Positions 16,987-60,424 of a stretch of 64,000 bases of DNA are shown piece by piece. The stretch is from Chloroflexota bacterium (GTDB lineage: Bacteria; Chloroflexota; Dehalococcoidia; Lucifugimonadales; JADFKI01): positions 64,567 through 128,566 of the forward strand of contig VXNZ01000014.1 in NCBI GenBank assembly GCA_009840355.1, given 5' to 3'. The notes beneath the pieces are model-generated. The model was not told where the DNA came from. It saw only the letters and a list, made by a program, of their open reading frames with translations, and ran no database searches. Position 1 is the first letter of the stretch; every line of letters begins with the position of its first letter. The position numbers were made by a program, and so were the translations under genes.

Positions 16987-17021
16987 CTGTGATTGACCGC
17001 GAGAGATCACAGGCATATAAT
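16987..17021 (+). promoter_or_regulatory. Near-consensus promoter with an overlapping inverted-repeat operator, upstream of the 17056-18703 operon
   Basis: TTGACC (16993..16998), a 17-nt spacer, then TATAAT (17016..17021). The inverted repeat CTGTGAT (16987..16993) / ATCACAG (17006..17012) straddles the -35 box and the spacer. Confidence 0.5.
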
Positions 17022-17055: not shown

Positions 17056-18087
17056 TTGAGCACGCAATCACTGACATCGGAGTTGTTTGAATTTGACAGT
17101 TCGTCCGACGCTATCGAGCATTACTTTCGCGTAGGCTGGACTGATGGGTTGCCAGTCGTGCCGCCCACGCCGGAGAAGGTCGGCGAAATGCTCGACTATG
17201 TTGGCCGCTCACCGTCGGAAATTTTGGGGACTGAGCCTACAAAAGGTCGGGTCATTACCGTCGAGAAAGTGGCGATTAACGCCGTAATGGCAGGCTGTCT
17301 GCCGGAGTATTTTCCGGTCGTGTTGGCGGCGGTCGAAGCGCTGTGCGAGCCGCAGTTCAACCTGCACGCGATAACGGTCAGCACGATGGGCGCCGCTGTG
17401 CTCGCTGTCGTCAGCGGACCCGTCGCAGACGACCTGGCGATGAACTCGTCGGTGAGCGTGTTCGGTCCCGGGCATCGTGCGAACGCGACCATCGGGCGCG
17501 CGATTCGCCTTGTAATCATCAATGTAACCGGCGCGTTGCCCGGCGTACTCGACAAGGCGACGTTGGGGCATCCGGGCAAATACACCTGGTGCATCGCGGA
17601 GGCGGAGCAAGTCAGCCCGTGGGAACCGTTGCACGAAGAGCGCGGCTTGGCGGCAGGCACGAGCGCGATAACACTGTTTGCCGGCCTGTCTGCGACGCAA
17701 GTGCCAAATCACACCGGCAACACGCCCGAAACGATACTCGTGAGTTTCCGAGATGCTATGTTCGCAGCGGGATACGGACAAGGCGAGCTTGTCGTCGTTC
17801 TTTGCCCTGAGCATGTCGGCTACCTAGGTGCGGCGGGTTGGAGCAAGGCGGATGTCAAGCGCTTCCTGCACGAAAACGCCCAGCGCACGGTTACGGAGTG
17901 GCAAAGCTCAGGACGCGAAATGCCCGACGGCTTGGACGCGGACGCAGTGTTGGCAACGGCAGACTCGCCGGACAGCATTACACTACTCGTCGCCGGCGGT
18001 TTCGCGGGTGCGTTTTCGCAAGTGATTCCCTTGTGGGGCGGCGGGTCGAATTCGCGCTCGGTGTGCCGTCAGATTGAATTGCCTTAG
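17056..18087 (+). CDS. Conserved-looking hypothetical protein, upstream partner of the UGSC selenoprotein gene
   Basis: 343-aa ORF. TTG start with GGAGA 7 nt upstream. Globular-looking composition (…GWTDGLPVVPPTPEKV…, …AINAVMAGCLPEYFPV…). No family recognised. A 73-nt gap separates it from the next gene. Confidence 0.6.
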   Translation: MSTQSLTSELFEFDSSSDAIEHYFRVGWTDGLPVVPPTPEKVGEMLDYVGRSPSEILGTEPTKGRVITVEKVAINAVMAGCLPEYFPVVLAAVEALCEPQFNLHAITVSTMGAAVLAVVSGPVADDLAMNSSVSVFGPGHRANATIGRAIRLVIINVTGALPGVLDKATLGHPGKYTWCIAEAEQVSPWEPLHEERGLAAGTSAITLFAGLSATQVPNHTGNTPETILVSFRDAMFAAGYGQGELVVVLCPEHVGYLGAAGWSKADVKRFLHENAQRTVTEWQSSGREMPDGLDADAVLATADSPDSITLLVAGGFAGAFSQVIPLWGGGSNSRSVCRQIELP

Positions 18088-18160
18088 TTAGAATGTTGGC
18101 TGAAAGTGCCACTGATAGTAAGGTGCTGCAAATACGCAGCCGAATTAAGGAGGAAGGACT

Positions 18161-18703
18161 ATGGTAACTGCGGAAAGAGTCCAAGTTCTTGACCCGACCG
18201 TTCATGCGATACCGAACGACGCGGTCGTAGCGGAGCGGCCGGATACGCTTGAAGGCAAAGTAATCGGCTTGCTGGCGAACGGCAAGATTAACTCTGAGGA
18301 AATACTGGCGCTCACACAGGAAGTGCTGGCAGACCGTTATGAGTTCAAGTCGGTTGTGGCTCGGAACAAGATGAACGCCTCGCGCCCATGCCCGGATCAC
18401 ATCATCGACGAGCTTGTGGAGCAATGCGACGTGGTAATTACCTCGTCGGGCGATTGAGGATCTTGCTCATCGTGCAGTGTGCACGACGGAATTACCCTTG
18501 AAAAGCGTGGTGTCCCTACAGCGGTCATCTGCACCGAGCCGTTCATATCCAGCGGCAAGGCGATGTCAAACATCGGTGGCATACCGGACTACCCTTTCGT
18601 TGTGCTGCCGCATCCGCTGGGCAGCCTCGACGAAGAGCGGTTGCGCGAACGCGCGATACAGGCGGCGCCCGAAGTGCTGCGCATTTTGCTGGCGCGTGGA
18701 TAG
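18161..18703 (+). CDS. Selenoprotein candidate with a U-G-S-C motif (in-frame UGA at 18455..18457 decoded as Sec)
   Basis: ORFs 18161..18457 and 18479..18703 share a frame, and TGA at 18455..18457 is the only stop between them. Read-through gives ...VVITSSGD-U-GSCSSCSVHDGITLEKRGVP... (180 aa). AAGGAGG lies 7 nt before ATG 18161, while the second ORF has no independent start signal. A SECIS-like hairpin follows the TGA. tRNA-Sec and selA are in the same window. Confidence 0.75.
18466..18490 (+). promoter_or_regulatory. SECIS-like recoding hairpin
   Basis: U-CGUGCA-GUG-UGCACG-A (18470..18486), a 7-bp stem plus an outer C-G pair (18468/18488). The stem starts 13 nt after the UGA and the apical G/U-containing loop lies about 20 nt after it. 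Confidence 0.55.
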
Positions 18704-30033: not shown

Positions 30034-30131
30034 TGGCGGGAGCGAGAGGGAGTCGAACCCACCGTCCCGACCGAAGGGCCGGGACCATCGGATTTGAAGT
30101 CCGTGGAACCCACCGGAGCACATCCGCTCCC
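30034..30131 (-). tRNA. selC: tRNA-Sec (anticodon UCA)
   Basis: 98 nt. The minus strand reads GGGAGCGG-AU-GUGCUC-CGGU-GGGUUC-CACGGA-CUUCAAA-UCCGAU-G-GUCCCGGCC-CUUC-GGUCGGGAC-G-GUGGG-UUCGACU-CCCUC-UCGCUCCC-G-CCA. It has an 8-bp acceptor stem, a 6-bp D stem with a 4-nt loop, a UCA anticodon (plus-strand TGA at 30095..30097), a 22-nt extra arm (9-bp stem), a 5-bp T stem and an encoded CCA. It is colinear, segment by segment, with E. coli tRNA-Sec as I recall it. Irregularities: two mismatches at the base of the anticodon stem, and one U-U in each of the D and T stems. Confidence 0.85.
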
Positions 30132-30196: not shown

Positions 30197-30805
30197 CTAC
30201 CGTCGGCGTCTGTATTCGATGAAGTCGGTGATGATGGCGTCCACCTCTTCCCACCACAGGCTGCCTAGAATCAGCCCTTTCGGCACATCGAACACCATCC
30301 AGCCTTGCACCTGAAACTCGCGGTCGAGTTCGATGGCACCCCACAGGAACGGCGTGTACAAGTCAGTCTCGGGGTCGGCAGTGTCCACGACGCGCGACGC
30401 CTCGAACGGGTCAACCGCGTTGATGCGCTCGCCGCGCCTGTCGCCGAGCTGCGCTGCGTCTTCGTCGATGAGCAAGGGCGTAACCAGGCTGGTGCGGTTG
30501 ACTAGCGTTATGTCGAGCAGCACCAGCTGACGATTGGACGCTCTAGGGCGTATGACGCGGTACTGTCCGGCACCGTCCGTGAACGCGACCTTATCCACGA
30601 TGAGCGGATGCGTCGTGTGCACTTCGAGGCTCCTGCCACGCGCGGATACCCTCTCCGGCTCATCGCTGCCACAGGACAGCAGTGCGAACGATGTCGCCAA
30701 TAGGAGGAACAGCGCAAGCGGCGACAGGCAGCCGGATATTCCCTTAAACTTACTCGCCTTGAACCAATGTGACTTTTGCGTCAGGTGCGAAATTTGTGCT
30801 TTCAA
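30197..30805 (-). CDS. Lipoprotein, DUF4352-like (tentative)
   Basis: 202 aa. Signal peptide with lipobox (LLLATSFALLS-C-GSD), then a beta-rich domain. The true start may be internal. Confidence 0.55.
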   Translation of the reverse strand: MKAQISHLTQKSHWFKASKFKGISGCLSPLALFLLLATSFALLSCGSDEPERVSARGRSLEVHTTHPLIVDKVAFTDGAGQYRVIRPRASNRQLVLLDITLVNRTSLVTPLLIDEDAAQLGDRRGERINAVDPFEASRVVDTADPETDLYTPFLWGAIELDREFQVQGWMVFDVPKGLILGSLWWEEVDAIITDFIEYRRRR

Positions 30806-30890
30806 TTCTGTCGTCGTGCTTCCTGTTCAATCTGTAATATCAATTCTGAATGCGAACTACGCCAGCGACTGCCAATGCAGCGCTGCGATA

Positions 30891-32117
30891 TTATCTCGCA
30901 GCGGACAGCGACGGCATTGCCCGTAGCTTGGCTATCATATCCGGCAATACGGACAGCACATAGTCAATTTCGGCGTCTGTGTTTTCCTGTCCGATGGTAA
31001 ATCGCAAGCTGCTCTGTGCCATTTCCGCCGTCAGCCCGATGGCAAGCAACACATGCGACGGCTCCAACGATGCGGACGAACAAGCGCTTCCACTTGACGC
31101 GCAGATGCCCGCGAAGTCCAGCCCGAGCAGCACAGGCTCGCCTTCGACGCCTCTGAACGACAAATTCACATTGCTGGGCAGTCGTTGTGCCGGGTGACCG
31201 TTGAGCTTTACACCGTCAATCGTCTCGAATATACCCTGCGTCAGCCGTTCGCGTAGTCGTAGGCAGTGTGCCGAGCTCGCTTCCCGTTCCTGTGCGGCGA
31301 GACGCAGCGCCTCGCCGAATCCGACGATGCCGGGCACATTCTCGGTGCCGGAGCGCCGCTGTCGTTCTTGACCGCCGCCTGCGTTTTGCTCGTCGAATGG
31401 CGTACCGCGCCTGATGTACAGAAGACCCACGCCTTTGGGACCGTACATTTTATGCGCGGACAGGCTAAGCAATTCCACGCCCAATTCGCGGACATTGATG
31501 TCGAGGAATCCGGCGGCTTGCACGGCGTCCGTGTGCATCAGGATACTGCGTCCGCGCCGGCCCGCCTCTGCCTTCACATGCCGCGCGATCTCAGCAATTG
31601 GCTGCACAGTGCCTATCTCGTTGTTCGCCATCATCACACTGACCAAAATCGTCTGATCCGTGATTGCGTCGACGACATCGCGGGGGTCCACCATGCCGTA
31701 CTCATCGACCGGTAGGTATGTAACATCGAAGCCAAACTGCTCCAATTGGTAGCAGGTGTGCAGCACGGCGTGGTGTTCTATGGCGGTGGTGATGATATGG
31801 TTGCCAAGGCTCTTCAGCGCGAATGCGACGCCCTTGATCGCTGCGTTATCAGACTCGGTGCCGCCGCTTGTGAAGACAATCTCGCTCATTCGCGCGCCCA
31901 GAATGCGGGCGATTCGCTCGCGTGCGTCATCAACGGCTTTGCGCGCTTCCTGCCCGATGGTGTAAATGCTGGACGGATTCCCGAAGTCAGCCGCAAAGTA
32001 CGGCATCATCGCATCAAGCACTTCGGAACGCATGGGAGTGGTCGCCGCGTGGTCCAAGTATATGACCCTTTCTGCGATGGTCAATGTACTCCCCTTTCCA
32101 TCCGCATTATCTAACAA
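30891..32117 (-). CDS. Cysteine desulfurase, NifS/IscS-like (class V aminotransferase)
   Basis: 408 aa. [10 protein letters not shown] start region, PLP-lysine context [17 protein letters not shown], and active-site loop SSGSACSS. Confidence 0.88.
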
Positions 32118-40305: not shown

Positions 40306-43300
40306 CTACATCGTTAGCTTCTTGTAGAGGTAGAGCAGGCGCGAGGGCAGTTCGTAGATGTCGTCAAGCACTTCGTAGCCCATGTCGGAGCACATCGTCT
40401 TTAGGTAATCGTGCCCGTTCTTGTCCACAGTGAGCGCGAAGGCGTTGATGCCCTTGTTCTTCGCCTCGTCGAGCGCCATCTTCGTGTCGTGGACGGCGTA
40501 CTCCTTCTCCACACCTTCGCGGCTGTATCCCCTGTCCTGCGGCCTGCCGTCGCTGATTAGGAACATCAGCTTTGTACGTGCGTCCTGCTTGTCCAACTTG
40601 TATGTCGTATGGCGAATCGCAGGACCCATGCGCGTGGCATGCAGAGGTGCGATGCGGTCTATGCGCCGCTTCACTCGGTCGGAGAAGTTCTCGTCCAAGT
40701 CCTTGATTGTGTAGAACTCGACATTCTCCCTGCCGTAGCCCGAGAAGCCATATATTCCGTATAGGTCACCGATTGCCTCAAGCGCGTTGATGAGCAGGAC
40801 AATTGCCTCTTTCTCGACATCGATTATGCGCTTGTACGACCGGCGCATAGCCTCACCTCTGCGGGTGCGCAACCAGACCATATACTCAACGGGGTCGTCC
40901 GGCGCGTCCCAGTCGTCCGTGTTCTTGCGCGTGTCGTCGATCGCCTCGGCGGTAGATGCGCTGGTATCCAGCAGGAATGCCACCGCTACATCGCGCTGCA
41001 CTTTGTTGCGCCGCCAGTAGAACTTATCGCTGGGGCTGGCTCCGGTCTTCATGTCCACGAAGGCTTCGATGATGTCGTCTATGTCGATCTCTTCGCCATC
41101 TTCGAGCTTGCGCACCTTGCGGAACATCTCAGGCACCATCATCTCGAATTGCCGGCGAATCTGAGTAACCAGCGTGCCGTAGTTGCCGAGTGTGTTGCCG
41201 TAGTACGACGGGTCACCCTCTTGCATCGTCTTCTGGCGCACGATGCACCAGCGCGGCTTGTAGTCGTCCGCGCGGAAGTCCCACTCGTCGTACACGAATG
41301 TTTGCGGCTCGTTTGCCTCAAGCTCGCCGCCGTCTTCGTCCACATGCACGAGTGGGCCTTGCCCGAACTCAGGCGATTGCGGGGCGTCAACGCCCGCTTC
41401 CTTCATCAGGTTGTTCGCCATCACATTGCTAGACTGCTGTATCTCACCCTGCACCGATTCGAGTTCGAGCTCGGCGCTGTTCTGAAGAAGTTCTTCCAGC
41501 ATTTCCTGTGTGATAGGCTCACCGCTTGCCTGGCCGGGTTCGTCCTGCTGCATACGCAACTGTTCCAAAAGCTGCGTGAGTTCCGGCTTGAAATCGCCTC
41601 GGAAATCCACCTCTTCTGTGGCTTCGTAGTCTTGTTCGCCGTCCGGGCGCATCTGCATTTCCATGCCCTGCGCTATCTGCTGCAGCAACGACTCCATCTC
41701 GTCCGGATCGACGTATTCCTCTTCCATTTCGTCGGTCATGTCCAGATCATCCCAGTCTTCCGGTGGCGCTTCTTCGTTGGGAATCTGCGATATGATCGCG
41801 TAGATTCGCAGCGTTGCTTCGGCAGTGTCCTCGACCTGTGCGTCTGGGTTGACAACCTGGCGCAATATTCGCCCGATTTGCTTCGCCTGCTCCTTGTACT
41901 GCTCCGGCGCGGGCAAGCCTTCGTACTGCTGTAGGCTCAGCCTGACCAAAAACTCGACCATCGCCTGACGCATCGGGAGTTCAGTGATGTTCGGGCGATG
42001 CGGTAGGGAGTCCTTTTGCACTTGAGTGTAAGTGTTCCGTATGCCGCGATACTCGTGCTTGACGCGAGCATCTAGGCGTGCCTCTTCGACGACTGTGTAG
42101 ATGTCGAGCGCCAGTTTGCGGTCATCGAACAAGTCGAAGTAGCGCTGTATGTCGGTAACCCAGGCGCGCCCGGCTTCTTCGGCGTCAGACTCCGGCAGGC
42201 TGTCGCCGCTTTCGCTGGCACCATCGTCGCCGGGATGCGCCGCAGCGAACTTTTGCCGTGCGAATTCCTCTCGCAGGTCGTCGAACATCGTGGATGGCCT
42301 GTCGAAGTCGAACCAGAAGCTGCCGAATTCAAGGCGCGCGACTTGGTGCGTGGACACTACCTTGAACCAGTTGAAGTTCTCGTGCTTGGTCATGTAGCGG
42401 TCAACGAGCCCGGGGACGAAGACCGTCGAGCCTTCCGTCGTCGGCGATTCGCTGGACACCCAGCCTATATTCTTGTCGGCAAGTTCGCCGCTTTCGGACA
42501 TCTTGATTTCCGCGCCCGCGAGACCGCGGCAGTACATCTCCATCACATCCTTGATGCGCTGGAATTCGACGCCGGACGACAGCGTTTCGAGCATCTCTTC
42601 GGAGCGCGCAGACTCTATCTTGAAGTACGCCAAGCCTCCGTCACTGTTCTGCATCAGGATGCTGACGCCCTCTGCGTACCACTTTTCGAGCTGATTCATC
42701 GTCAGCTTGTCCAACGCAACGGGGCATGCCTTCAAGAACTCCGGCACCGCATGCGCCGAGCGCGGCAGCAGCGCTTCTGCCATGCCAAGAATCTGCTCGT
42801 GGTCGTGCGTATCCACTTGCGAAAGTGCGTTGGATGTCTCCAACATTACGCTTGGGATGTTCATGCCGCCGTTCTGCACAAGCTGCTCGGCGAGTTTCAG
42901 GAAGCGCAACCGCTGCGTGCCTTCGATGCGGGGCAATGCGCGCGCGCCGGACTCAAAGAACGCCTTAATCTCGCGCCAACCGGAGTCCGTGAGCACTGTC
43001 GCCATGTTGATGAACGCCGCCTTGTCGTCACCAATCATCGGGAAGAGCTTCTGCCCAAGCGTCAGGCAGTCTGATGACAGGTCATAGGACCTGTGTGACA
43101 GCGCGTCTAGGAAATTGGCGAAGCGCTCCAACTCCGGGAAGCTAAGATCGTCTAGCAGCGCAGGGCTGGATTGGAAGAACTTGCAAGCCAGCGTGCTGGA
43201 CTTCCAAGTGCCCTTATACAGCGTGCGCCCGAGCGTCGCCCAACTTTCGATGTGGCGCGAGCGCAGCTTGCTCATCGTACCCGGGCTTGCCTCAAAGTAT

Positions 43301-43620
43301 GCGGTCGCAAGAGTGGGCGATTCCGCACAGAGTGCCTTGCCGCAGTCCGTCCATTGGAAGAAGTAGTTCAGCGGCATGTAGGCGAGCACCCTAGCGCTCA
43401 CCTTGTAGAACTCGGCGGCGGCTTCCCACGAGCGCACGGTTTCTTGCGCAATTTCAAGGCCTGCGTTCGCCCAATCGTGCCTTTGCGCGTCGGTGAGATT
43501 CGGAGGCATCTGCACCAGCGCCTTGTCGAATTCGTCGACTACGGAAGCGGGAAACTTCCCCAACTCGACTCTGATGTCATCTAGCGTTGCCGACTGATTC
43601 TTCAAGGCATTGCCTCCCAT
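40306..43620 (-). CDS. Large NorD/CbbO-like protein with a C-terminal von Willebrand factor A domain
   Basis: 1104 aa. The last 228 aa or so (about 40309..40992) form a VWA domain with a MIDAS motif (VAVAFLLDTSAS ... FLISDGRPQD). There is a central strongly acidic region (EEAPPEDWDDLDMTDEMEEEYVDPDEME...). The N-terminal 600 aa match nothing I recognise. No SD precedes ATG 43620, so the start is uncertain. Confidence 0.75.
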   Translation of the reverse strand: MGGNALKNQSATLDDIRVELGKFPASVVDEFDKALVQMPPNLTDAQRHDWANAGLEIAQETVRSWEAAAEFYKVSARVLAYMPLNYFFQWTDCGKALCAESPTLATAYFEASPGTMSKLRSRHIESWATLGRTLYKGTWKSSTLACKFFQSSPALLDDLSFPELERFANFLDALSHRSYDLSSDCLTLGQKLFPMIGDDKAAFINMATVLTDSGWREIKAFFESGARALPRIEGTQRLRFLKLAEQLVQNGGMNIPSVMLETSNALSQVDTHDHEQILGMAEALLPRSAHAVPEFLKACPVALDKLTMNQLEKWYAEGVSILMQNSDGGLAYFKIESARSEEMLETLSSGVEFQRIKDVMEMYCRGLAGAEIKMSESGELADKNIGWVSSESPTTEGSTVFVPGLVDRYMTKHENFNWFKVVSTHQVARLEFGSFWFDFDRPSTMFDDLREEFARQKFAAAHPGDDGASESGDSLPESDAEEAGRAWVTDIQRYFDLFDDRKLALDIYTVVEEARLDARVKHEYRGIRNTYTQVQKDSLPHRPNITELPMRQAMVEFLVRLSLQQYEGLPAPEQYKEQAKQIGRILRQVVNPDAQVEDTAEATLRIYAIISQIPNEEAPPEDWDDLDMTDEMEEEYVDPDEMESLLQQIAQGMEMQMRPDGEQDYEATEEVDFRGDFKPELTQLLEQLRMQQDEPGQASGEPITQEMLEELLQNSAELELESVQGEIQQSSNVMANNLMKEAGVDAPQSPEFGQGPLVHVDEDGGELEANEPQTFVYDEWDFRADDYKPRWCIVRQKTMQEGDPSYYGNTLGNYGTLVTQIRRQFEMMVPEMFRKVRKLEDGEEIDIDDIIEAFVDMKTGASPSDKFYWRRNKVQRDVAVAFLLDTSASTAEAIDDTRKNTDDWDAPDDPVEYMVWLRTRRGEAMRRSYKRIIDVEKEAIVLLINALEAIGDLYGIYGFSGYGRENVEFYTIKDLDENFSDRVKRRIDRIAPLHATRMGPAIRHTTYKLDKQDARTKLMFLISDGRPQDRGYSREGVEKEYAVHDTKMALDEAKNKGINAFALTVDKNGHDYLKTMCSDMGYEVLDDIYELPSRLLYLYKKLTM

Positions 43621-46518: not shown

Positions 46519-47889
46519 ATGACTTCAGCGTACAGATTATTACCGAGCGTGGAACGGATATTGTCGGACGAGCGCATCTCGGCGTTAGTGGATAAGCACT
46601 CGCGGCTGGCGATAACGGAAATCGTCAGGCAGCGACTCGCGGGCGCGCGCGGCGAAATCGCCGCAGGTGGCGATGCACCGCAGCTGCACGAGATTATTGC
46701 CGATGTCGCGGCGCGCGCAGAAGTGATGGCGCTACCATGGCCCCGCCATGTGATAAACGCGACGGGCGTTGTATTGCACACGAACCTTGGCCGCGCGCCG
46801 CTGAGCGACGACGCGAAGAACGCGACGCTGCGGGCAGCGCAGGGTTACAGCGACCTCGAATTGGACTTGGACACCGGACGGCGCGGCTCTCGGCAGGCGC
46901 ACATCTCGAAATTGGTCGCGCGTGTAACGGGCGCAGAGGCGGCGCTAGTCGTAAACAACAACGCTTCCGCCGTGATGCTCGGTCTCGCGGCGATTGCAAA
47001 TGGCAAGGAAGTCATCGTGTCTCGTGGCGAAGCGGTTGAGATTGGCGGCGGCTTCCGCATTCCGGATGTGTTGCGTCAGAGCGGCGCGACTCTGGTCGAA
47101 GTCGGCACGACCAATCGCACATACGCCAGCGACTACGAAGCTGCCATCACGGAACGTACGGGCGCGCTGCTGGCAGTGCACGCCAGCAATTTCCGAGTGA
47201 TGGGATTTACGCACGCGCCGGAAATCCGAGATCTTGTTGAAATCAGCGCGCGGTGCGGCGTGCCGGTGCTGCACGACCTGGGCAGCGGATGCCTGCTAGA
47301 TTCCGCGCAGTTTGGCATGATGCACGAACCCATGCCGCAGGAAAGCGTCAACGCGGGCGTAGGTCTGTCGTTCTTTTCAGGAGACAAGCTGCTAGGCGGT
47401 CCGCAAGCAGGCATAATCGCCGGCACGAACAATCTGGTCGATTTGGTTGCGCGGCATCCGTTGGCTAGGGCAATGCGTATCGACAAGCTGAGCATGGCAG
47501 CACTCGCCGCGACGATTGAACACTACCTACGCGGTGAAGCACTGGACAAGATACCAATCTGGCGGATGATTGCAATGCCACCCGATGTGGTCAAGCGGCG
47601 CGTCATGTACTGGGCGGATAATATAGGCTCGCACGCATCCGCGGCATCATCAAGATCCACGATTGGCGGTGGAAGTCTGCCGGGCGAGACGCTTCCCACA
47701 TGGGTGCTTTCGATAGACTGCGATCGTGTTGAGGGCGGCGCGGAGGCTGTTGCAAAGCACCTGCGGGACGCAGATTCCCCCGTTCTAGGGCGCATCGAAG
47801 AGGGGCGAGTTCTGCTTGATGCCCGCACTGTGCTGCCTGAGGAAGAAAACGCGCTGCTGGCAACTGTACAGACTGCATTACAAGCCTAA
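46519..47889 (+). CDS. selA: L-seryl-tRNA(Sec) selenium transferase
   Basis: 456 aa. N-terminus LLPSVERIL...; NATGVVLHTNLGRAPLS; PLP-lysine motif FSGDKLLGGPQAGII. TATAAT at 46492..46497 and GGGAGA 8 nt before the ATG. Confidence 0.92.
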   Translation: MTSAYRLLPSVERILSDERISALVDKHSRLAITEIVRQRLAGARGEIAAGGDAPQLHEIIADVAARAEVMALPWPRHVINATGVVLHTNLGRAPLSDDAKNATLRAAQGYSDLELDLDTGRRGSRQAHISKLVARVTGAEAALVVNNNASAVMLGLAAIANGKEVIVSRGEAVEIGGGFRIPDVLRQSGATLVEVGTTNRTYASDYEAAITERTGALLAVHASNFRVMGFTHAPEIRDLVEISARCGVPVLHDLGSGCLLDSAQFGMMHEPMPQESVNAGVGLSFFSGDKLLGGPQAGIIAGTNNLVDLVARHPLARAMRIDKLSMAALAATIEHYLRGEALDKIPIWRMIAMPPDVVKRRVMYWADNIGSHASAASSRSTIGGGSLPGETLPTWVLSIDCDRVEGGAEAVAKHLRDADSPVLGRIEEGRVLLDARTVLPEEENALLATVQTALQA

Positions 47890-47909: not shown

Positions 47910-49238
47910 ATGACACTCTTCGAGCATCGTTCACGGCAGGAACTCGGCAGCCGAGCGCCGCTTGCCGCGAGGATGCGCCCGCGCACTTTCGATGAATATG
48001 TCGGGCAAGAGCACATCATCGGGCGTGGAACCGCGCTGCGTAACAGCATCCAAGCCGACACGCTGCCGTCCATCATCCTTTGGGGACCGCCGGGCACCGG
48101 CAAGACTACACTCGCGAATCTCATCGCAAATGTAACGGGCAGCCACTTCGAACAAGTCAGCGGTGTGGCGTCCGGCGTGGCGGACTTGCGGCGTATCGCA
48201 GGCGAAGCGCGTGAACGGCTGGGCATGGGAGGGCAGTCCACGATACTATTCGTCGATGAGATACACCGCTTCAACAAAGCGCAGCAGGACGTCATCCTGC
48301 CGTATGTCGAAGACGGCACGCTGACGCTCATTGGCGCGACCACCGAGAACCCGTCGTTCGAGGTCGTATCACCCCTGCTATCCCGCGCAAGGGTGTTCGC
48401 ATTAGAATCGCTGAGCGATGAACATGTGCGCCGCATCGTGCAATCTGCGGCGGCAGACGACGAACGCGGTCTCGCAGATTTGCGGCCGCACATCCCTGAT
48501 ACTGCCATAGACGCGCTGGTAAACCTCGCCAACGGGGACGCCCGCACCGCGCTCAACGCACTGGAACTGGCGGTCAGCGCAACCTCGCCTGACGAAGACG
48601 GCACACGGCACATCACCGTCGAAGTCGTGGAGGACGCTATGCAGCGCCGCTCGCTGCGCCACGACAAGGCGGGCGACTTGCACTACGATACAATCTCGGC
48701 GTTCATCAAGTCCGTGCGCGCGTCCGACCCGGATGCGGCGATCTACTGGCTTGCGCGTATGTTGGAAGCGGGCGAAGATCCGCTGTTCATCGCGCGGCGT
48801 CTAGTCGTTCTAGCATCTGAGGACATTGGCATGGCGGCGCCTCAAGCGCTCACGGTCGCGGTCGCCACGCAGCAAGCCGTGCACTTCATCGGGCTGCCGG
48901 AAGGCAGAATTCCACTCGCTGAGGCGACGGTATATTTGGCAACCGCGCCGAAGAGCAACGCGTCGTATATGGCGCTTAACAAGGCGATGGAAGATGTGCA
49001 GCGCACGCGCAACGAACCCGTACCGCTGCACTTGCGCGACGCCGTTACCGGCCTGATGCGCGATATGGGCTACGGAGACGGCTACAAGTACGCGCACGAC
49101 TACGAAGGCAATTTTACGCCGACGCAGAACCTGCCGGACAGTTTGAAAAACCGGCGCTACTATCAGCCCGGCACGCAAGGCTACGAACGCACTGTCCGCG
49201 AGCGCATGGAACGCTGGTGGAGCGACAGCCGGAAATAA
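47910..49238 (+). CDS. rarA: Replication-associated recombination protein A (AAA+)
   Basis: 442 aa. LAARMRPRTFDEYVGQEH, Walker A GPPGTGKTT, Walker B LFVDEIHRFNK, C-terminal MgsA domain (YWLARMLEAGEDP). Confidence 0.92.
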   Translation: MTLFEHRSRQELGSRAPLAARMRPRTFDEYVGQEHIIGRGTALRNSIQADTLPSIILWGPPGTGKTTLANLIANVTGSHFEQVSGVASGVADLRRIAGEARERLGMGGQSTILFVDEIHRFNKAQQDVILPYVEDGTLTLIGATTENPSFEVVSPLLSRARVFALESLSDEHVRRIVQSAAADDERGLADLRPHIPDTAIDALVNLANGDARTALNALELAVSATSPDEDGTRHITVEVVEDAMQRRSLRHDKAGDLHYDTISAFIKSVRASDPDAAIYWLARMLEAGEDPLFIARRLVVLASEDIGMAAPQALTVAVATQQAVHFIGLPEGRIPLAEATVYLATAPKSNASYMALNKAMEDVQRTRNEPVPLHLRDAVTGLMRDMGYGDGYKYAHDYEGNFTPTQNLPDSLKNRRYYQPGTQGYERTVRERMERWWSDSRK

Positions 49239-58734: not shown

Positions 58735-58870
58735 GCGTATGGCGCAATGCCGCCCTACTCTGCTTGTATATGGGTTCAGTGGCGAACAAAGGGCTGCCAT
58801 CGTGTATAATCGCGAAAATCGAAAATGAAGTGGCTGTTTGACAGCATTCTCACATCACAGGAGGTTTGGC

Positions 58871-60424
58871 GTGAAGTACGATTACATCATCATCGGCGCG
58901 GGCTCGGCGGGTTCGGTCTTGGCGACTCGCATTACTGAGAGCACCGACCGCTCGGTATTGTTGTTGGAGGCGGGTCCGGACTATGTGGATATTGAACACC
59001 TGCCGGACAGCGTCAAGCAAGGTAACAATCCATGGCATTCAGCCTACGGCCCGGACGCGCACAGCTGGAACTACGAAGCGAGCGCGACGCCGGGGCGCGA
59101 ACCGTTCATCGTGCCGCGCGGCAAGGTTACGGGCGGCTCAAGCGCGATTAACGGGCAAGTGTTCTTTCGCGGCATCCCGGAAGACTATGACGAGTGGGCG
59201 GAACTCGGCAATGGCGAATGGTCCTTTGTGAACTGCTTGCCCTACTTCAACAAGAGTGAAACCGACCTGACATTTGGCGGGGACGACTTTCACGGCTCTG
59301 ACGGACCGATACCCGTCAGGCGATATGAGCGCGAAGATGTGAACCCAAGCGCAAAGGCGTTCTGGGCGGCATGCGTCAATGCGGGCTTCCCTGAGACGAT
59401 GGACCAGAATCACCCGGAATCTACCGGGGTCGGTCCGCGTCCGCTCAACAACATCGACGGTGTGCGGATGAGCACGGCGCTGACATATCTGTCGCAGGTG
59501 CGGCACAAGCTCAATCTGACGATTCGCGGCAATGTGATGGTTCATCGGATACTCTTCGAGGGCAAGCGCGCGGTGGGCGTGCAAGCCGAAAGCGGCGGCG
59601 AGGCGTTCAGCGTGTACGCTGACGAAATTATACTGAGCGGCGGTGCGATAAACTCGCCGCAGACGCTGATGTTGTCGGGAATAGGCCCCGTCGAGCACAT
59701 CAAAGAGGTGGGCATAGAACCCCTGCATGACCTGCCCGGCGTGGGACAGAACCTGCGTGATCATCCCTCCACATTCATCCCTTATAGCACCACATTGGAA
59801 CTGGCGGACATCAACACGCCGTCCATTCAGGTTGGGATGCGCTACACAACGCCGAACTCCATACATCGGAACGATATGCAAATGTCTCCCATCCTCTTGA
59901 CAAGCGAACACAGACCATCGAATGTGCAACTCACTGATGATGGCACATTCACCGGCTTTAGCGTAGCGCTGCAAAAAGCGGTAACGGCAGGGACGCTACG
60001 GCTCGCGTCGGCAGACCCCAATCAGCAGCCGCTGCTGGACTACAACTACCTGAGCGACGCATGGGACAAGGAGCGCATGCGCGGCGCGGTGCGGCAGTGC
60101 GTTGAAATCGCCCAAAGTCCTGAGTACGCGGACATACTCGTAGAACGCCTGACACCTTCCGACGAAGAGCTGCAAGACGACGACACGCTCGACGCATGGC
60201 TGCTGGCAAATGTCGGCACGCAGCATCACTCATCCGGCACCTGCAAGATGGGTCCTGCGTCCGATGATATGGCGGTGGTGGACCAATACTGCCGTGTATA
60301 TGGCATCGACGGGCTGCGTGTGGTGGATGCGTCTGTCATGCCCGATGTAGTGCGCGCCAACACGAACGCCACGACAATCATGATCGCAGAGCGAGTCGCA
60401 CAATGGATTATCGACGAGAGCTGA
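58871..60424 (+). CDS. GMC-family FAD oxidoreductase (choline dehydrogenase-like)
   Basis: GTG at 58871 with AGGAGG upstream. YDYIIIGAGSAGSVLATRI FAD motif. GGSSAINGQVF. C-terminal HHSSGTCKMG active-site region. Confidence 0.88.
   Translation: MKYDYIIIGAGSAGSVLATRITESTDRSVLLLEAGPDYVDIEHLPDSVKQGNNPWHSAYGPDAHSWNYEASATPGREPFIVPRGKVTGGSSAINGQVFFRGIPEDYDEWAELGNGEWSFVNCLPYFNKSETDLTFGGDDFHGSDGPIPVRRYEREDVNPSAKAFWAACVNAGFPETMDQNHPESTGVGPRPLNNIDGVRMSTALTYLSQVRHKLNLTIRGNVMVHRILFEGKRAVGVQAESGGEAFSVYADEIILSGGAINSPQTLMLSGIGPVEHIKEVGIEPLHDLPGVGQNLRDHPSTFIPYSTTLELADINTPSIQVGMRYTTPNSIHRNDMQMSPILLTSEHRPSNVQLTDDGTFTGFSVALQKAVTAGTLRLASADPNQQPLLDYNYLSDAWDKERMRGAVRQCVEIAQSPEYADILVERLTPSDEELQDDDTLDAWLLANVGTQHHSSGTCKMGPASDDMAVVDQYCRVYGIDGLRVVDASVMPDVVRANTNATTIMIAERVAQWIIDES

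Follow-up and report, generated by a model that had tools for sequence, protein, structure and literature searches.

A UGSC-family selenoprotein gene split by its UGA codon in a Chloroflexota bacterium, and the conserved partner gene beside it

Introduction

Two short open reading frames (ORFs) lie in the same frame, separated by a TGA codon, within a 64,000-nt stretch of a Chloroflexota bacterium (assembly GCA_009840355.1, contig VXNZ01000014.1, positions 64,567 to 128,566 of the forward strand). We refer to this whole stretch as the window. Are the two ORFs one gene in which UGA is read as selenocysteine (Sec), and what might its product do? An ORF lister yields 18161..18457 (98 aa) and 18479..18703 (74 aa). 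The public records split this exact gene in the same manner, as MYC06317.1 (98 aa) and MYC06318.1 (74 aa), both named 'hypothetical protein' and assigned to a Chloroflexi/Chloroflexota metagenome-assembled genome (MAG). An earlier reading made from the DNA letters without database searches, here called the sequence-only reading, had joined the ORFs into one selenoprotein that gene callers would miss and had suggested the name 'UGSC family (seleno)protein' for it.

The UGSC family is not obscure. It has been known since 2005-2008 (PMC1976440, PMC2398784), and the 'UGSC-containing protein' of Zhang and Gladyshev was found in Hyphomonas neptunium and a worm symbiont (PMC1976440). Environmental data from Global Ocean Sampling (GOS) hold 255 Sec forms versus 21 cysteine (Cys) forms (PMC1976440, PMC2398784). 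UGSC has been listed among redox or thioredoxin (Trx)-like selenoproteins (PMC2398784, PMC13188914), and it still appears, as NF041046, with no function attached in reviews of 2022 and 2026.

Results

One reading frame across an in-frame TGA

The locus at 18161..18703 is a single frame of 181 codons on the forward strand, and TGA 18455-18457 is its sole internal stop. The codons that follow, GGA TCT TGC TCA TCG TGC AGT, continue in this frame as G-S-C-S-S-C-S. The elements of the locus are listed below with the evidence for each.

18147..18153, + strand: Shine-Dalgarno (SD) sequence AAGGAGG, 7 nt before the ATG at 18161 (sequence)
18161..18703, + strand: predicted gene of a UGSC-family selenoprotein, encoding 180 aa before a TAG stop, with Sec at codon 99 (hidden Markov model (HMM) scores, homologue alignment, constraint past the TGA)
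18455..18457, + strand: UGA codon predicted to be read as selenocysteine, U99 (U/C column in 147 homologues; TGA kept in 69 distinct DNA sequences)
18464..18466, + strand: Cys102 codon, the invariant +3 Cys of U-x-x-C (147/147)
18470..18486, + strand: predicted selenocysteine insertion sequence (SECIS) hairpin, stem 18470-18476 with 18480-18486, apical loop GUG 18477-18479 (covariation, Cys-type control)

Translation confirmed that the TGA alone divides the two ORFs, and the AAGGAGG stands where the sequence-only reading had placed it. The second ORF lacks a start and an SD sequence of its own. Its nominal GTG start (18479) falls inside the hairpin UCGUGCA-GUG-UGCACGA, as had also been stated.

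We compared the window with a 94%-identical locus (L081) to examine the sequence past the TGA. The two differ there at 2, 0 and 23 sites in codon positions 1, 2 and 3, with 24 synonymous codon changes and a single non-synonymous one. Elsewhere in the window TGA is an ordinary stop that terminates 9 of 35 family-supported genes, which indicates local recoding and not a genome-wide reassignment of the code. Other candidates for read-through TGA codons in the window were all frame shadows of annotated genes or ordinary SDR/ABC genes, and were set aside.

The recoded codon lies in a conserved Sec/Cys column

For searches against family profiles, the U of the joined translation was replaced by C. 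NCBIfam NF041046, 'UGSC family (seleno)protein', matched residues 32-176 with 142.2 bits (cut-off 125), and Pfam PF24696 matched residues 8-177 with 194.5 bits (cut-off 25), covering profile positions 1-171 of 172. The TGA lies inside both matches, and the family name proposed in the sequence-only reading is thereby verified. Gene calls on relatives show the same split, and PF24696 is flagged on each of the two halves.

Translating 164 related loci with TGA as U and searching them with the family HMM gave 147 distinct UGSC proteins. Loci on genome contigs were found with a Cys-anchored pattern (GDC...) and are hence Cys-type only; Sec-type loci came from metagenomes through a query with the partner gene described below. 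Residue 99 is U in 68 of these homologues and C in 79, and no other residue occurs there. C102 is invariant (147/147). The window carries D98-U99-G-S-C102 at the family's conserved position after the third beta-strand. The third Cys of the U-G-S-C-S-S-C redox motif in the sequence-only reading, C105, varies among C, G, W, S and Y. The conserved motif is therefore U-x-x-C only, which upholds the Sec/Cys pair of the proposed motif and discards its third Cys; U-G-S-C-S-S-C is no family motif.

Homologues from the database search are full-length (174-188 aa) and continuous, with Cys aligned to residue 99. Many other database homologues of 99-100 aa end in '...SGD', the pattern of a gene caller stopping at a Sec-TGA, and no homologue ends at this position except such cut gene calls. 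One record (P0001, from L165 128-658) shows an apparent Trp at the Sec position because its translation used a genetic code in which TGA means Trp; the DNA has TGA. Cys-type UGSC genes occur in cultured bacteria, including Bradyrhizobium, Actinomadura, Pseudonocardia thermophila and Nonomuraea. Geodermatophilaceae carry a second, degenerate UGSC-like paralogue (L002 1680-2042, L005 2140-2433, L009 2766-3239, L020 9318-9623) about 1.3 kb downstream of the Cys-type UGSC and without U/C-x-x-C (e.g. 'VVIGVCSSIQAAH').

The window gene shares with the known family (NF041046/PF24696) a length of about 180 aa, a single domain, U-G-S-C at the Sec/Cys site and a SECIS immediately downstream, and we found no gene-level difference from it. 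By these sequence comparisons it is an ordinary member of an already known family.

Comparative support for a SECIS hairpin

The hairpin of the window starts 13 nt after the UGA. Its folding energy is unexceptional by itself (z = -0.06 for a 56-nt fragment). This z-score was uninformative, and we therefore tested the hairpin comparatively, using 69 distinct Sec-type segments of 60 nt aligned gap-free from the TGA onward. Cys-type genes have no need of a SECIS, and 77 distinct ones served as the negative control.

Positions 16-22 pair with positions 26-32 in 95.4% of cells across the 69 Sec-type sequences. Five of the seven stem pairs show changes on both sides (43 cells); pair 19-29 alternates between U-A, G-U and A-U, and pair 21-27 between C-G and G-C. 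None of 500 column shuffles attained any of the observed pairing measures, and sliding the 3' arm by 1-3 nt lowered pairing to 14-58%. RNAalifold independently predicted the identical helix. The apical loop reads GUN in 69/69 Sec-type genes, and the Ser codon that supplies its GU is AGT in 68/69 of them versus 0/77 Cys-type genes. All seven pairs are present in just one of the 77 controls, and GU stands at the loop position in five. Hairpin energies were -7.5 +/- 1.0 kcal/mol for Sec-type and -1.4 +/- 3.8 kcal/mol for Cys-type sequences (p = 3e-18), with -8.2 kcal/mol for the window.

Several compensatory changes in the stem are synonymous, such as TCATGTA/TACATGA in L089, and 23 G-U stem pairs would be A-C mismatches if the structure lay on the antisense strand. 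These observations indicate that the constraint acts on the sense-strand RNA. The stem also reaches into the protein. Residues 105 and 108 co-vary among Sec-type members (C/H, G/L, S/L, or W with a synonymous GTG-to-GTC change at Val107) because their codons base-pair in the SECIS stem, and Cys-type homologues have R or Q at residue 108. The co-varying sites in the window fall in codons 103-107 (18467-18481) and codon 108 (18482-18484). This SECIS is thus a case of RNA structure dictating protein sequence.

The hairpin resembles fdhF-type bacterial SECIS elements in lying directly 3' of the UGA and inside the ORF, with G-U opening an apical loop that lies about 20 nt from the UGA. It differs from them in its short stem (6-7 bp), its 3-nt loop and the lack of an evident bulged U. 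A conserved G in the apical loop is given as a hallmark of bacterial SECIS elements in the legend to Fig. 7 of PMC2398784. By its covariation, its invariant GUN loop and its absence from Cys-type genes, the hairpin at 18470-18486 is a real SECIS, as the sequence-only reading had supposed. The conserved in-frame TGA, the stem covariation and the synonymous bias past the TGA are, as comparative evidence, decisive against chance. We conclude that 18161..18703 almost certainly encodes one 180-aa UGSC-family selenoprotein, with UGA-99 decoded via the hairpin. The earlier claim of a single protein missed by gene callers is borne out by the profile matches across the TGA, the homologues, the constraint past the TGA and the split public records. 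What that reading stated about the letters themselves proved correct throughout, and each of its proposed checks that was carried out went in its favour.

A conserved gene adjoins UGSC

A second gene and a promoter candidate lie directly upstream of UGSC.

16993..17021, + strand: weakly supported sigma-70-like promoter candidate TTGACC-17-TATAAT, 11/12 matches, about 35 nt upstream of the partner gene (1.2 such sites expected by chance in the region)
17056..18087, + strand: partner gene, 343-aa unnamed conserved family, proposed catalytic subunit (homologues, adjacency, fusions)

The partner ORF ends 74 nt before the start of UGSC, and no terminator-like site lies between the two genes. Near-invariant residues of the partner family are D30-G-L-P, A79-G-C81, N130, N143, R148 and E182. 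C81 of the A-G-C motif is conserved in 154 of 157 sequences. At least 7,996 partner homologues are present in the database, all annotated as 'hypothetical'; an exhaustive search gave 6,610 clusters at 50% identity (E <= 1e-3), 1,842 of them with E <= 1e-30. The partner had no Pfam or NCBIfam match, even at E <= 10 for eight diverse homologues, and a profile search of PDB sequences found no relative. Its signature motifs were absent from the searchable literature. Two structural matches from Foldseek were rejected as annotations: the class I fumarate hydratase alpha subunit, the best match (E 4e-3, TM 0.27-0.31), and PrpD/IRG1 (TM about 0.15).

We examined the association from both sides. Among 84 UGSC loci from Chloroflexota, Actinomycetota, Alphaproteobacteria and Vicinamibacterales, a partner homologue lies directly beside UGSC in 82, and both exceptions are at contig edges. 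When metagenome loci were fetched by the partner alone, 69 of 80 had an adjacent UGSC gene, all Sec-type. The remaining 11 comprise 6 loci cut by contig ends and 5 from a separate subfamily of the partner, in which different genes follow downstream. The order is partner-UGSC in 136 pairs and UGSC-partner in 16, and ATGA overlaps are frequent. Other neighbours vary and include a LysR regulator, SDRs, Liv-type ABC and TRAP transporters, TauD-like dioxygenases, CoA-transferases and LLM oxidoreductases. By these counts the partner is an obligate neighbour of UGSC.

Several variants of the partner were seen. The subfamily without UGSC nearby (L111, L149, L158, L160, L161) has the N-terminus MTDEMEIWFERGVTDGLP..., with a DAO-type FAD oxidoreductase downstream in L149 and a CMP/dCMP-deaminase-like gene downstream in L161. 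A Chloroflexi MAG (GCA_016179845.1, L082 7314-10546) carries two tandem pairs of partner and Sec-type UGSC followed by a rhodanese gene. Partner domains occur as tandem doubles in P0150, P0152, P0154, P0155, P0167, P0172 and P0293 (about 710-740 aa). P0028 (173 aa, on an ENA contig of 19 kb) joins the partner N-terminus (about 140 aa) in frame with the last ~35 residues of UGSC, and is probably a deletion or an assembly artefact.

Fusions and substitute modules

The two proteins are also found as one polypeptide. A UGSC domain is present in 34 of 52 N- or C-terminally extended partner-family representatives, in both domain orders. Twenty-one of these consist of a UGSC domain beginning just past the Sec position followed by the partner, and 4 of the partner followed by a UGSC domain ending in '...GD'. 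Both forms are partial because gene callers cut Sec-type fusions at the TGA. The other 9 are UGSC-partner fusions with the UGSC domain present (8 full-length, 1 partial), 5 with Cys-type motifs and 4 with degenerate ones. One case is confirmed by DNA: the L167 locus has one reading frame of 555 aa, interrupted by a lone in-frame TGA and arranged as UGSC(GD-U-GGC)-linker-partner. In P0156, by its gene coordinates, the next called start lies 24 nt after the start of the TGA, as it does in the window. In-frame fusions were absent from the fetched loci and were seen only through the exhaustive partner-family search.

Other modules take the UGSC position in further members of the partner family. 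These are Trx-fold Redoxin/AhpC-TSA domains with CxxC or CxxT (5 cases) and the catalytic beta domain of ferredoxin:thioredoxin reductase (FTR-beta, 2 cases). A domain of about 90 aa with C-A-D/T-C is attached to Cys-type UGSC or directly to the partner in P0007, P0010 (C-terminal) and P0169 (N-terminal). Perhaps this domain is a further redox or metal module of the system, and it may be the 'Unknown_1' of the GOS paper.

Predicted fold and resemblance to B-type reductase subunits

We used the AlphaFold model of a Cys-type homologue (P0002, 52% identical; pLDDT 90, pTM 0.84) to examine the UGSC fold. The model predicts a five-strand parallel alpha/beta sandwich after an extended N-terminus of 33 residues. 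It places the Sec/Cys immediately behind strand beta-3, where it caps the N-terminus of the following helix. Foldseek matched it in the PDB to flavodoxin/Rossmann-like domains with TM 0.43-0.53 (GH3 C-terminal domain, lumazine synthase, RpiB, PTS-IIB and RecJ DHH). No thioredoxin-fold protein was among the top 50 matches, and a profile search of PDB sequences with UGSC gave no match of any kind. As modelled, the UGSC fold is flavodoxin-like, not thioredoxin-like as the literature suggests.

Residues 70-166 have weak matches in NCBIfam to the Sec region of GrdB (E 3.6e-5), the PB subfamily, GrdF, PrdB and GrdH. The scores miss the PrdB/GrdB cut-offs by a wide margin (TIGR01917, 22.9 bits vs 602; TIGR04483, 13.9 vs 300), so UGSC is no member of these families. 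Pfam GRDB (PF07355) did not match the UGSC protein. We then aligned profiles with hhalign, taking authentic PrdB/GrdB-type selenoproteins from Dataset S1 of the GOS paper. Small alignments gave an ambiguous result (probability 8%, register shifted by 3). Using 79 Sec-type UGSC sequences gave P = 9.8e-5 and a probability of 58% over 71 columns, with U aligned on U, C102 on the +3 Cys, and G(I/V)PT and PLG in register. These alignments point to a probable distant homology of UGSC to the Sec domain of B-type reductase subunits.

UGSC shares with PrdB, GrdB, GrdF and GrdH (PF07355; D-proline, glycine, sarcosine and betaine reductases) the order beta-strand, U-x-x-C, helix, G(I/V)PT, PLG, and, as proposed here, a second, larger subunit alongside. 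The differences are considerable. GrdB has about 430 aa, whereas UGSC has 180. The UGSC partner is unrelated to the pyruvoyl proenzymes PrdA/GrdE, and no PrdA- or GrdE-like gene is among the recurrent neighbours of UGSC loci. GrdA- or GrdC-type genes are likewise lacking near UGSC, and many UGSC hosts are aerobes.

Selenocysteine machinery and other genes of the window

Two genes for Sec decoding lie within the window. Both had been named in the sequence-only reading and were recovered by dedicated searches.

30034..30131, - strand: tRNA-Sec, anticodon UCA (ARAGORN; Rfam RF01852, 66.4 bits, gathering score 47)
46519..47889, + strand: selA, L-seryl-tRNA(Sec) selenium transferase (TIGR00474, 531 bits, cut-off 268)

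The gene after selA (47910-49238, + strand) encodes a RarA-like AAA ATPase and is not selB. The Sec genes are dispersed in this genome. A NifS-type cysteine desulfurase and an unannotated 202-aa ORF directly adjoin tRNA-Sec (30197-32117, - strand), an arrangement kept in L081. The desulfurase scores 531.8 bits with TIGR03402 (cut-off 530.75) and has weak similarity to the selenocysteine lyase SclA; it could be a link to selenium mobilisation.

Three further genes of the window stood out. A 479-aa protein (12572-14011, - strand) combines a staphylococcal-nuclease domain with a long ankyrin-repeat array; such arrays are uncommon in free-living bacteria. A 1104-aa ORF (40306-43620, - strand) has no NCBIfam match at E<=1e-3. 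A GMC oxidoreductase (58838-60424, + strand) scores above the cut-off for the mycofactocin dehydrogenase MftG (TIGR03970, 404 bits vs 387).

Discussion

We propose that UGSC does not act alone: the 343-aa partner would be an enzyme, co-transcribed with UGSC, and UGSC its dedicated redox subunit. The ribosome would read UGA-99 as Sec via the 6-7 bp hairpin with its GU-containing loop, an element that SelB carrying Sec-tRNA(Sec) would recognise; the reading as Sec is expected because the mRNA hairpin starts 13 nt downstream, the standard bacterial SECIS arrangement. In the protein, U99 and C102, which lies one helix turn after it, would cycle between the selenol/thiol and the selenenylsulfide. 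Cys81 of the partner would be the likely catalytic residue, a role that we infer, and UGSC would regenerate the partner or resolve its covalent or oxidised intermediate. Adjacency and fusion suggest a physical complex and a direction of electron flow.

Obligate adjacency, the fusions and the presence of Redoxin or FTR-beta at the UGSC position make a redox subunit of the partner the most likely role of UGSC. We hold it a little better than an even chance that UGSC serves the partner in this way through a Sec99/Cys102 selenol/thiol couple. Most economically, the partner would be a Cys-dependent enzyme needing a built-in disulfide-reducing module, of which UGSC is the commonest. For identity and function jointly, we put the probability of our explanation at roughly 0.6. 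From the transporters and LysR regulators nearby, the system may serve to break down a small organic compound.

Several findings speak against this proposal. About 7% of the sampled partner loci with sufficient flank have no UGSC gene nearby. Four fused UGSC domains (P0202, P0233, P0261, P0277) lack U/C99 or C102, so the domain may be structural and not redox-active in some lineages. The second Cys of the partner, C179, is conserved in only 75% of sequences, and the predicted partner fold (model pLDDT 81) has no convincing Foldseek match, the best TM being about 0.3. Neither selB nor selD was found within the 64-kb window.

We weighed four other explanations. UGSC might be the catalytic nucleophile of a PrdB/GrdB-like enzyme of reductive cleavage. 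Sec99 would then attack a substrate held by the partner, which would be analogous to PrdA/GrdE, and Cys102 would resolve the selenoether or selenide adduct to a selenenylsulfide that an external thiol system reduces. The weak but consistent NCBIfam matches (GrdB at E 3.6e-5), the larger hhalign comparison (P ~1e-4, probability 58%) and a two-subunit architecture like that of PrdA/PrdB agree with this idea. We nevertheless consider it unlikely, given a score of 22.9 bits against a cut-off of 602, no Pfam GRDB match, the ambiguous small-alignment result (8%, register off by 3) and a partner without similarity to PrdA or GrdE. Generic Redoxin and FTR-beta domains at the UGSC position also fit a reductant better than a substrate-specific nucleophile, and hosts include the aerobes Bradyrhizobium and Actinomadura. 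Alternatively, the Sec/Cys cluster might bind a metal or an Fe-S cluster, possibly at an interface with C81 and C179 of the partner. Cys-type members are Cys-rich at the site (CGSCCSCC, CAGCCSC), some relatives have the extra small CxDC domain (P0007, P0010, P0169), and two partner fusions use the Fe-S-containing FTR-beta domain. Yet the family conserves only U/C99 and C102, with C103, C105 and C106 missing from most Sec-type members; the incomplete conservation of C179 and the classic redox geometry of a U-x-x-C at a helix N-cap likewise make cluster binding improbable.

A third possibility is that UGSC is a free-standing general thiol oxidoreductase or antioxidant and the partner gene merely a syntenic passenger. 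The U-x-x-C motif would suit such a protein, and reviews group UGSC with redox or Trx-like selenoproteins (PMC2398784, PMC13188914). In its predicted structure, though, the protein does not have a thioredoxin-like fold, the Foldseek top 50 being flavodoxin/Rossmann-like, and the partner stays adjacent across at least four phyla while other neighbours vary, with 34 fusion clusters besides; we regard a free-standing role as very improbable. Finally, the TGA might truly end translation, or be a lesion in a pseudogene or an error of sequencing, so that the ORFs are separate or dead, as two genes in the public annotation and an unremarkable hairpin energy would allow. This reading has a negligible probability and is refuted as far as sequence evidence reaches: 69 distinct sequences keep the TGA, Cys-type homologues run through without a break, purifying selection persists past the TGA, the second ORF lacks a start and SD, and the SECIS covaries.

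The proposed redox subunit has parallels in enzymes that have a CxxC reductant module of their own, fused or paired with them, for example in Msr-Trx or Prx-Grx fusions. As in those systems, a domain with a conserved Cys, here presumed catalytic, is combined with an interchangeable dithiol module (UGSC, Redoxin/AhpC-TSA or FTR-beta). The catalytic domain here differs from theirs in that its family is unnamed and no fold match was detected for it; the reductant module seen most often also lacks the thioredoxin fold. The obligate partner gene and the non-thioredoxin fold were not described in the literature searched. We add a flavodoxin-like fold with distant PrdB/GrdB similarity and an obligate 343-aa neighbour without a Pfam or NCBIfam model. 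The 'UGSC/Unknown_1' fusion of 2008 may already be the partner, and we therefore do not claim the association as certainly new.

The window gene is a textbook selenoprotein hidden from gene callers, and many of its database relatives are cut at the TGA, including fusions cut on either side. Correcting such split calls matters for selenoproteome censuses. On even odds, UGSC and its partner would form a widespread thiol/selenol-dependent enzyme, as two subunits or a fusion, in which a PrdB-like, non-thioredoxin Sec module is the built-in reductant of a new catalytic fold whose A-G-C Cys is invariant. The highly abundant UGSC family gains a concrete, testable functional context in its obligate partner enzyme, and pairs with Cys in place of Sec in cultured bacteria make knockouts and co-purification feasible. 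If true, this model would give a biochemical context to one of the most abundant selenoprotein families of the ocean, whose function has been unknown for about 20 years.

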